From Escherichia coli (GTDB lineage Bacteria > Pseudomonadota > Gammaproteobacteria > Enterobacterales > Enterobacteriaceae): DNA of 64,000 bases. A model generated the notes under the pieces. That model ran no database searches and was not told the origin of the DNA. It saw only the letters and a list, made by a program, of their open reading frames with translations. Below are positions 34,942 through 35,473 of this stretch, piece by piece. Within the stretch, counting starts at the first letter, position 1. Every line of letters starts with the position of its first letter. The translations under genes and the position numbers were made by a program. The stretch lies in assembly GCF_003334355.1 (NCBI RefSeq), contig NZ_QOWP01000004.1. One strand, 5' to 3'.

Positions 34942-35301
34942 TCATTTCCCGTTATGAATGACTTTCCGTTGTTGCGCACCTTCCATCAGGACTTCAGGAG
35001 CCACGAAGAAGTCAATGTTGAAATAAGTATCGTCAGTCATGGCTTCAATGTTGTGCCACTTTTCTGGAGGGAACACCGCAAACTGCCCCGCTTCGATAAG
35101 GATCACCTGATCAGGCTCTGCACTGTGTTCATCAGCGTAGCCGAGATATTTGACCGCCCCATGCATAACGGAAAGGCGTGGGTAAACCCCCGGGCGCGTT
35201 CCTTTATCAAGATGACGTTCGAATATTCCGGCAGGTGCAGTTTGTTTATTCCAGAAAGGCGTTGAGCGCGTATGAATATAATTCTGTGGGATTTGAAGCA
35301 T
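34942..35301 (-). CDS. yeaR: DUF1971-family protein YeaR
   Basis: 119 aa ORF matching YeaR. Confidence 0.9.
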   Translation of the reverse strand: MLQIPQNYIHTRSTPFWNKQTAPAGIFERHLDKGTRPGVYPRLSVMHGAVKYLGYADEHSAEPDQVILIEAGQFAVFPPEKWHNIEAMTDDTYFNIDFFVAPEVLMEGAQQRKVIHNGK

Positions 35302-35366
35302 CCTTTTCCCTCCTTCGGTGAATGCGCTGAAAACGGTTTATTCCAGCCGTTTCAGGGTACGCCTGA

Positions 35367-35392
35367 TAATTTGCATTTTAAATACCATTTAT
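35367..35392. promoter_or_regulatory. Imperfect palindrome upstream of yeaR, candidate NsrR-type operator
   Basis: AATTTGCATTTTAAATACCATTT about 70-90 bp upstream of the yeaR start resembles the NsrR inverted-repeat consensus; inference. Confidence 0.4.
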
Positions 35393-35473
35393 TGGTTACT
35401 TTTTAGCACCATATCAGCGAAGAATCAGGGAGGATTATAGATGGGAAGCCCGCGACAACGCGGGCTGAAAGCA

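Follow-up and report, generated by a model that had tools for sequence, protein, structure and literature searches.

Introduction

NsrR is an iron-sulfur-cluster repressor of the Rrf2 family that senses nitric oxide (NO). Proteins of this family have related A/T-rich inverted repeats as their targets. The operator of NsrR has been defined as two 11-bp motifs forming an inverted repeat with a 1-bp spacer, which makes 23 bp (Mehta et al. 2015, PMC5320621). The same study calls yeaR a known target of NsrR, citing Lin et al. 2007 and Filenko et al. 2007, to whom site-dependent derepression in an nsrR mutant or by NO is attributed, and the sequence AAATGGTATTTAAAATGCAAATT is printed verbatim in its Table 4 as the 11-1-11 site of this gene, with a PatSer ln P of -17.05 for a threshold of -14.28. 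ChIP-seq of NsrR in strain CFT073 gave no peak at yeaR, which the authors judge to be probably a false negative; the way they put it implies that yeaR was likewise missing from an earlier ChIP-chip analysis of K-12 (PMC5320621). The control of yeaR-yoaG by NarL and NsrR has been restated in further papers, nitrate induces yeaR and yoaG about 160-fold in RNA-seq of CFT073, and the yeaR promoter is in use as a part of nitrate and NO biosensors.

The promoters of yeaR and ogt depend on NarL and are independent of FNR. At yeaR, a single 7-2-7 site at -43.5 that abuts the -35 element suffices, whereas ogt requires two NarL sites. A cryo-EM study locates the NarL site of the yeaR promoter, TAACCAATAAATGGTA, immediately upstream of the -35 element with its centre at -43.5, has a scaffold transcript that begins with G, and attributes the nitrate response of this promoter mainly to NarL, not to NsrR (PMC10853779).

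Here we follow up a preliminary description of a stretch of Escherichia coli DNA of 64,000 nucleotides (the window), in which a candidate NsrR-type operator had been proposed upstream of yeaR-yoaG and linked to the responsiveness of these genes to NO and nitrate. We conclude with high confidence that the palindrome at 35368..35390 serves NsrR as its operator in the E. coli yeaR-yoaG promoter. The assignment draws on the sequence, position, motif statistics and conservation observed here, and on the literature for NsrR-dependent regulation and NarL geometry. The operator, its regulator and the adjoining NarL site are already published, in a bacterial genome that is among the best studied, and nothing in this is new as a discovery. 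The word candidate did justice to a real site and not to its being documented, and the overlap with the NarL site and the -35 element had been missed. The genes, the regulator and the sequence had been named correctly; the response to nitrate passes mainly through NarL.

Genomic context of the operator

The surroundings of the operator are ordinary E. coli chromosome, with the order yoaG-yeaR-leuE and 99.9% identity with K-12 MG1655, and an 801-bp query (34700..35500) was found in 5420 of the 5426 complete E. coli genomes. RefSeq names the genes of the region yeaQ, yoaG, yeaR, leuE, and dmlR. The three that frame the site are the following, with an intergenic region of 172 bp upstream of yeaR.

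34756..34938, minus strand: yoaG coding sequence, 60 aa, DUF1869 (PF08956), co-transcribed with yeaR (open reading frame and annotation)
34942..35301, minus strand: yeaR coding sequence, 119 aa, DUF1971 / TehB-like (PF09313), RefSeq WP_000939317.1, with its ATG at 35301
35474..36112, minus strand: leuE (list of open reading frames)

Directly 3' of the leuE stop codon, at 35447..35466, lies a G+C-rich hairpin, AGCCCGCG-ACAA-CGCGGGCT, whose equivalent is also present in the upstream regions of Escherichia, Citrobacter, and Salmonella. Neither strand shows a clear T-tract, and a terminator scan made no call there. The hairpin is probably the leuE terminator, shielding the yeaR promoter from read-through.

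The palindrome is the published yeaR site

The 23-mer of the preliminary description is the reverse complement of AAATGGTATTTAAAATGCAAATT. In the window, AATTTGCATTTTAAATACCATTT occurs once, on the plus strand at 35368..35390, even when two mismatches are allowed. Counted from the A of the yeaR ATG, the palindrome lies 67-89 bp upstream, in agreement with the roughly 70-90 bp initially given. The span first assigned to the feature, 34942..35400, consists mostly of the yeaR coding sequence, and the feature itself is 23 bp long. Relative to the yeaR-yoaG operator of E. coli K-12, the 23 bases, the gene pair, the distance from the start codon and the centre at -32 (from the inferred start) are all the same. 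We detected no difference between the two, the present site being another copy in a region with 99.9% identity to MG1655.

35368..35390, minus strand: NsrR operator, 11-1-11 imperfect inverted repeat AAATGGTATTT-A-AAATGCAAATT along the direction of transcription, -43..-21, centre -32

The operators of ytfE, hcp, and hmp have the same 11-1-11 architecture, with ATGC/GCAT cores, an A/T-rich centre and an overlap with the core promoter through which the bound protein represses transcription. The yeaR site differs from them in its lower symmetry, with complementarity at 8 of 11 arm positions and 18 of 23 consensus positions matched, and in that one of its half-sites doubles as a NarL heptamer, so that the repressor and activator sites interdigitate. 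Furthermore, the three other operators have a ChIP-seq peak and yeaR has none (PMC5320621).

The NsrR motif match far exceeds chance

The arms of the repeat at 35368..35390 are complementary at 8 of 11 positions, and at least this degree of complementarity is reached at 108 positions of the window. We therefore dropped palindromy alone as evidence for an operator and used matrix scoring instead. A symmetrised NsrR matrix was built from the 25 other sites in Table 4 of Mehta et al. 2015 (PMC5320621), with yeaR omitted. With this leave-one-out matrix, 35368..35390 scores 22.6 bits, the highest value in the 64 kb (the runner-up has 16.5 bits). This exceeds the median of the sites used for training, which range from 11.8 to 31.4 bits. 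A matrix made from the ChIP-positive sites only gives 21.0 bits and agreement with the consensus at 18 of 23 positions.

None of 200 first-order Markov windows of 64 kb attained the yeaR score (mean maximum 14.2 bits, standard deviation 2.2), and shuffling the 172-bp intergenic region 20,000 times never produced it either. The exact tail probability of the score per position is 1.2e-8 under uniform composition and 1e-6 at 75% A+T. The NsrR-motif match at 35368..35390 is thus far beyond chance. Most of the matrix score sits in AAATGCAAATT, the half that is not part of the NarL site, while the distal half-site agrees with the 11-bp consensus at only 7 of 11 positions.

Could another regulator of the Rrf2 family, such as IscR, bind the palindrome in place of NsrR? 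The family's shared taste for A/T-rich inverted repeats speaks for this. However, the match is to a matrix derived from NsrR ChIP-seq sites, and yeaR shares its response to NO and nitrate with ytfE, hcp, and ygbA, genes of the NsrR regulon. We regard such a substitution as extremely improbable and retain NsrR as the regulator.

Two other matches in the window deserve mention. The runner-up, AACTGACTCTTCAAATGCCTGTT at 13192..13214 (16.5-17.1 bits), is located in ydjJ, at the 3' end of the gene, and precedes the ydjI start by 69-91 bp. We rejected it as an operator, its score being within the chance range; at about one standard deviation above the 64-kb chance maximum, it is probably fortuitous. 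At 146..168, the sequence ATCATACACTAAATCAGTAAGTT looks like a terminal inverted repeat of IS1, and the start of the window may hold an IS1 copy. Its NsrR-matrix score of 10 bits is due to chance.

The operator overlaps the predicted -35 element and the NarL site

The published NarL sequence maps to 35383..35398 as TAACCAA-TA-AATGGTA, the same sequence as the NarL-bound DNA in the cryo-EM structure. Counting from its centre at -43.5 puts the +1 position at 35347, and therefore the NsrR site at -43..-21, with its centre at -32. The elements obtained in this way are given below.

35383..35398, minus strand: NarL 7-2-7 activator site TAACCAATAAATGGTA, -51..-36, centre -43.5 (published sequence mapped to the window)
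35377..35382, minus strand: inferred -35 hexamer TTTAAA, -35..-30, 4 of 6 consensus positions, at the centre of the NsrR palindrome
35354..35359, minus strand: inferred -10 hexamer TACCCT, -12..-7 (derived coordinates)
35347, minus strand: inferred +1 (G), counted from the NarL centre at -43.5

The derived centre agrees with that of Lin et al. 2007, who reportedly centred the NsrR operator at -32. The NarL heptamers form an inverted repeat with 2 bp between them that abuts the -35 element, and each matches the NarL heptamer consensus TACYYMT at 5 of 7 positions. Spacing between the -35 and -10 hexamers is 17 bp. The middle of the NsrR palindrome coincides exactly with the inferred -35 hexamer, which the palindrome covers, and the palindrome has 8 bp in common with the promoter-proximal part of the NarL site. 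In other words, in coordinates derived from the NarL centre, the operator lies over core promoter elements. A scan of 34700..35520 for consensus sigma-70 promoters and terminators made no call, as expected of a weak promoter that matches the consensus at 7 of 12 positions and needs an activator.

The feature of the preliminary description is a repressor site, not the NarL site of the NarL-dependent promoters. The A/T-rich palindrome might, alternatively, be mainly a site for the nucleoid protein Fis, which would repress yeaR in rich medium by displacing NarL. The Fis footprint of Squire et al. reportedly overlaps the NarL site at -43.5. Fis repression of the yeaR promoter has also been described. 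Such repression is nevertheless compatible with the binding of NsrR and no true alternative to it, and degenerate Fis sites would leave unexplained both the ATGC/GCAT cores of the half-sites and the NsrR-type sites of distant genera described below. That the palindrome serves mainly Fis is, in our view, very improbable, and we continue to treat it as the NsrR operator.

A stem-loop at the 5' end of the yeaR transcript

The inferred start also delimits the leader of the yeaR mRNA.

35302..35346, minus strand: 5' leader after +1 (46 nt including +1), with the Shine-Dalgarno sequence GGAGG after the stem-loop

The first 22 nt of the inferred mRNA (35347..35326) can form a 5'-terminal stem-loop with a 7-bp stem, GCUGGAA/UUUCAGC, which folds at -8.7 kcal/mol (z -2.75). 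Leaders of Citrobacter and Salmonella (among loci L002-L026), where the starts are assumed, have a stem-loop at the same place made of other sequences, CAGCGA/UCGCUG and CAGCGGUG/UAUCGUUG. We rejected a DNA palindrome across the transcription start (CTGAAACGG...CCGTTTTCAG), whose inner bases vary even within Escherichia. Since the RNA stem GCUGGAA/UUUCAGC is conserved and the inner bases of the DNA are not, we read the element as an RNA feature. The matching position in the other genera suggests that the leader stem-loop is a conserved structure, perhaps a 5' hairpin that stabilises the mRNA.

The promoter core is conserved within E. coli

Of the 5426 complete E. coli genomes, 5417 carry the 56-bp promoter core (35345..35400), 4803 of them without any change. 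The neighbouring 56 bp (35401..35456) are matched in only 2050 of the 5426, and this spacer between the end of leuE and the yeaR promoter is hypervariable in E. coli. We sampled two variants of the core. One has a single change in the operator, GCATTTT to GCTTTTT, and the other has changes in the -10 region, in the spacer and outside the sites. In the strain USDA-ARS-USMARC-51688 (L031), an IS1A element is inserted directly upstream of the NarL site, at the equivalent of about 35400..35408, with a 9-bp target duplication (ACTTTTTAG); it leaves the core with the NarL, NsrR and -10 elements undamaged.

Conservation of the site in orthologous loci

To compare species, we scanned for YeaR in one genome per species, which yielded 26 usable loci from Escherichia, Citrobacter, Salmonella, and Silvania. 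In all 26, the top NsrR match anywhere in the 3.3-kb locus has its centre 73-84 bp ahead of the yeaR ATG, with scores of 9.7-23.8 bits. The upstream regions are unalignable outside one island, which consists of the NarL site, the NsrR site and GCGTAMCCT. The latter contains the -10 element and is kept in Escherichia, Citrobacter, and Salmonella, three genera across which the NarL site is nearly invariant.

The half-site common to NarL and NsrR is nearly invariant among the orthologues, while the proximal one drifts inside the tolerance of the motif (AAATGCAAATT, AAATGCCAGTT, AAATGTATATT, AAATATATATT). As the distal half-site is also a NarL heptamer, its conservation is not creditable to NsrR alone. 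In three loci of the Citrobacter sedlakii / amalonaticus group (L007, L015, L024), the NarL sequence TAACCAATAAATGGTA is swapped for TGCCCCTTTTGGTGTA, which again resembles a 7-2-7 inverted repeat; both the -10 element and the proximal half of the NsrR site persist. Judging from these sequences, the swap looks like a turnover of binding sites with function retained. Silvania has a better NsrR palindrome, AAGTCGCATTTTAAATGCATTTT, with 23.0 bits, and lacks a recognisable NarL site. The NsrR sites of Salmonella are weak (9.7-14.1 bits).

NsrR-type sites in distant yeaR-yoaG cassettes

We extended the comparison to eight yeaR-yoaG cassettes of more distant origin, mostly in other chromosomal neighbourhoods. 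The best NsrR matches are listed below, with positions relative to the ATG of the operon.

Yokenella: 20.9 bits, -94..-72
Lelliottia: 25.2 bits, -83..-61
Pantoea: 29.3 bits, -97..-75
K. pneumoniae (L034): NsrR-like site of 21.4 bits, displaced by about 0.8 kb by an IS1-like insertion upstream of the yeaR homologue
S. enterica Saintpaul: 13.5 bits (weak), -91..-69
Leminorella: no NsrR match; the operon lies directly behind norV-norW
Buttiauxella: 10.0 bits (not significant), -114..-92
Rahnella: 7.4 bits (not significant), -108..-86

The matrix scan thus found no NsrR site in the cassettes of Buttiauxella, Rahnella, and Leminorella. In Leminorella, the position of the operon behind the NO reductase genes norV-norW is a further link to NO. 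The TehB-like and DUF1869 genes occur together in every genus examined. Lelliottia, Leminorella, Buttiauxella, and Rahnella (L035, L037, L038, L039) have two tandem TehB-like (PF09313) genes followed by the DUF1869 gene, and the chromosomal neighbourhood of the cassette differs in nearly every genus. Strong sites in such varied contexts indicate that NsrR control travels with the cassette, and by the criterion of motif matches NsrR-type control appears to accompany it in many, not all, Enterobacterales.

These data bear on another view, according to which the conserved block is simply the NarL site next to an A/T-rich -35 region, the likeness to NsrR sites is incidental, and the response to NO or nitrite is indirect, through NarL/NarP or some other factor. 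It is the half shared with NarL that is best conserved, palindromes of this quality abound in the window, and NsrR ChIP-seq of CFT073 lacks a yeaR peak (PMC5320621), all of which such a view would accommodate. It does not account for a matrix score that is far above chance and comes mostly from AAATGCAAATT, outside the NarL site, nor for Silvania, Yokenella, Lelliottia, and Pantoea, which have palindromes as good or better at the same distance and lack the NarL sequence of E. coli. The literature, moreover, has NsrR regulating yeaR. We consider an incidental likeness very improbable. The location of most of the score outside the NarL half and the palindromes of genera without the E. coli NarL sequence make this and the other alternatives much less likely. 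The proposal of an NsrR-type operator for yeaR-yoaG is in this way supported by the identity with the published site, the leave-one-out score, the promoter geometry, and the conservation across species.

A model for the control of yeaR-yoaG

With the palindrome taken as the NsrR operator, the arrangement of sites suggests how the promoter could work. A dimer of holo-NsrR is predicted to bind the 11-bp half-sites AAATGGTATTT and AATTTGCATTT at -43..-21. Since the NsrR site sits on the weak -35 hexamer and the proximal NarL heptamer, the bound repressor would exclude both sigma region 4 from the hexamer and NarL from the common 8 bp. NO, either a by-product of nitrate/nitrite respiration or made by the host, would nitrosylate the cluster and release NsrR from the DNA. 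Phospho-NarL, formed in response to the nitrate/nitrite signal via NarX/NarQ, could then act at -43.5 and recruit RNA polymerase through the alpha-CTD.

A bolder version of this model can be envisaged, though we hold it rather doubtful. The common 8 bp would be a dual-coded switch, with NsrR acting chiefly as an anti-activator that evicts NarL and less by plain blocking of the -35 element, and the leader stem-loop would add an undescribed post-transcriptional layer, for example by stabilising the mRNA. The invariance of the common half-site next to a drifting proximal half, and a hairpin conserved in position and divergent in sequence, are compatible with these ideas and no proof of them.

The value of this analysis is confirmatory, as a real regulatory site was recovered correctly from the raw sequence alone. 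That NsrR control moves with the yeaR-yoaG cassette lends support to a conserved function for YeaR and YoaG in nitrosative stress.
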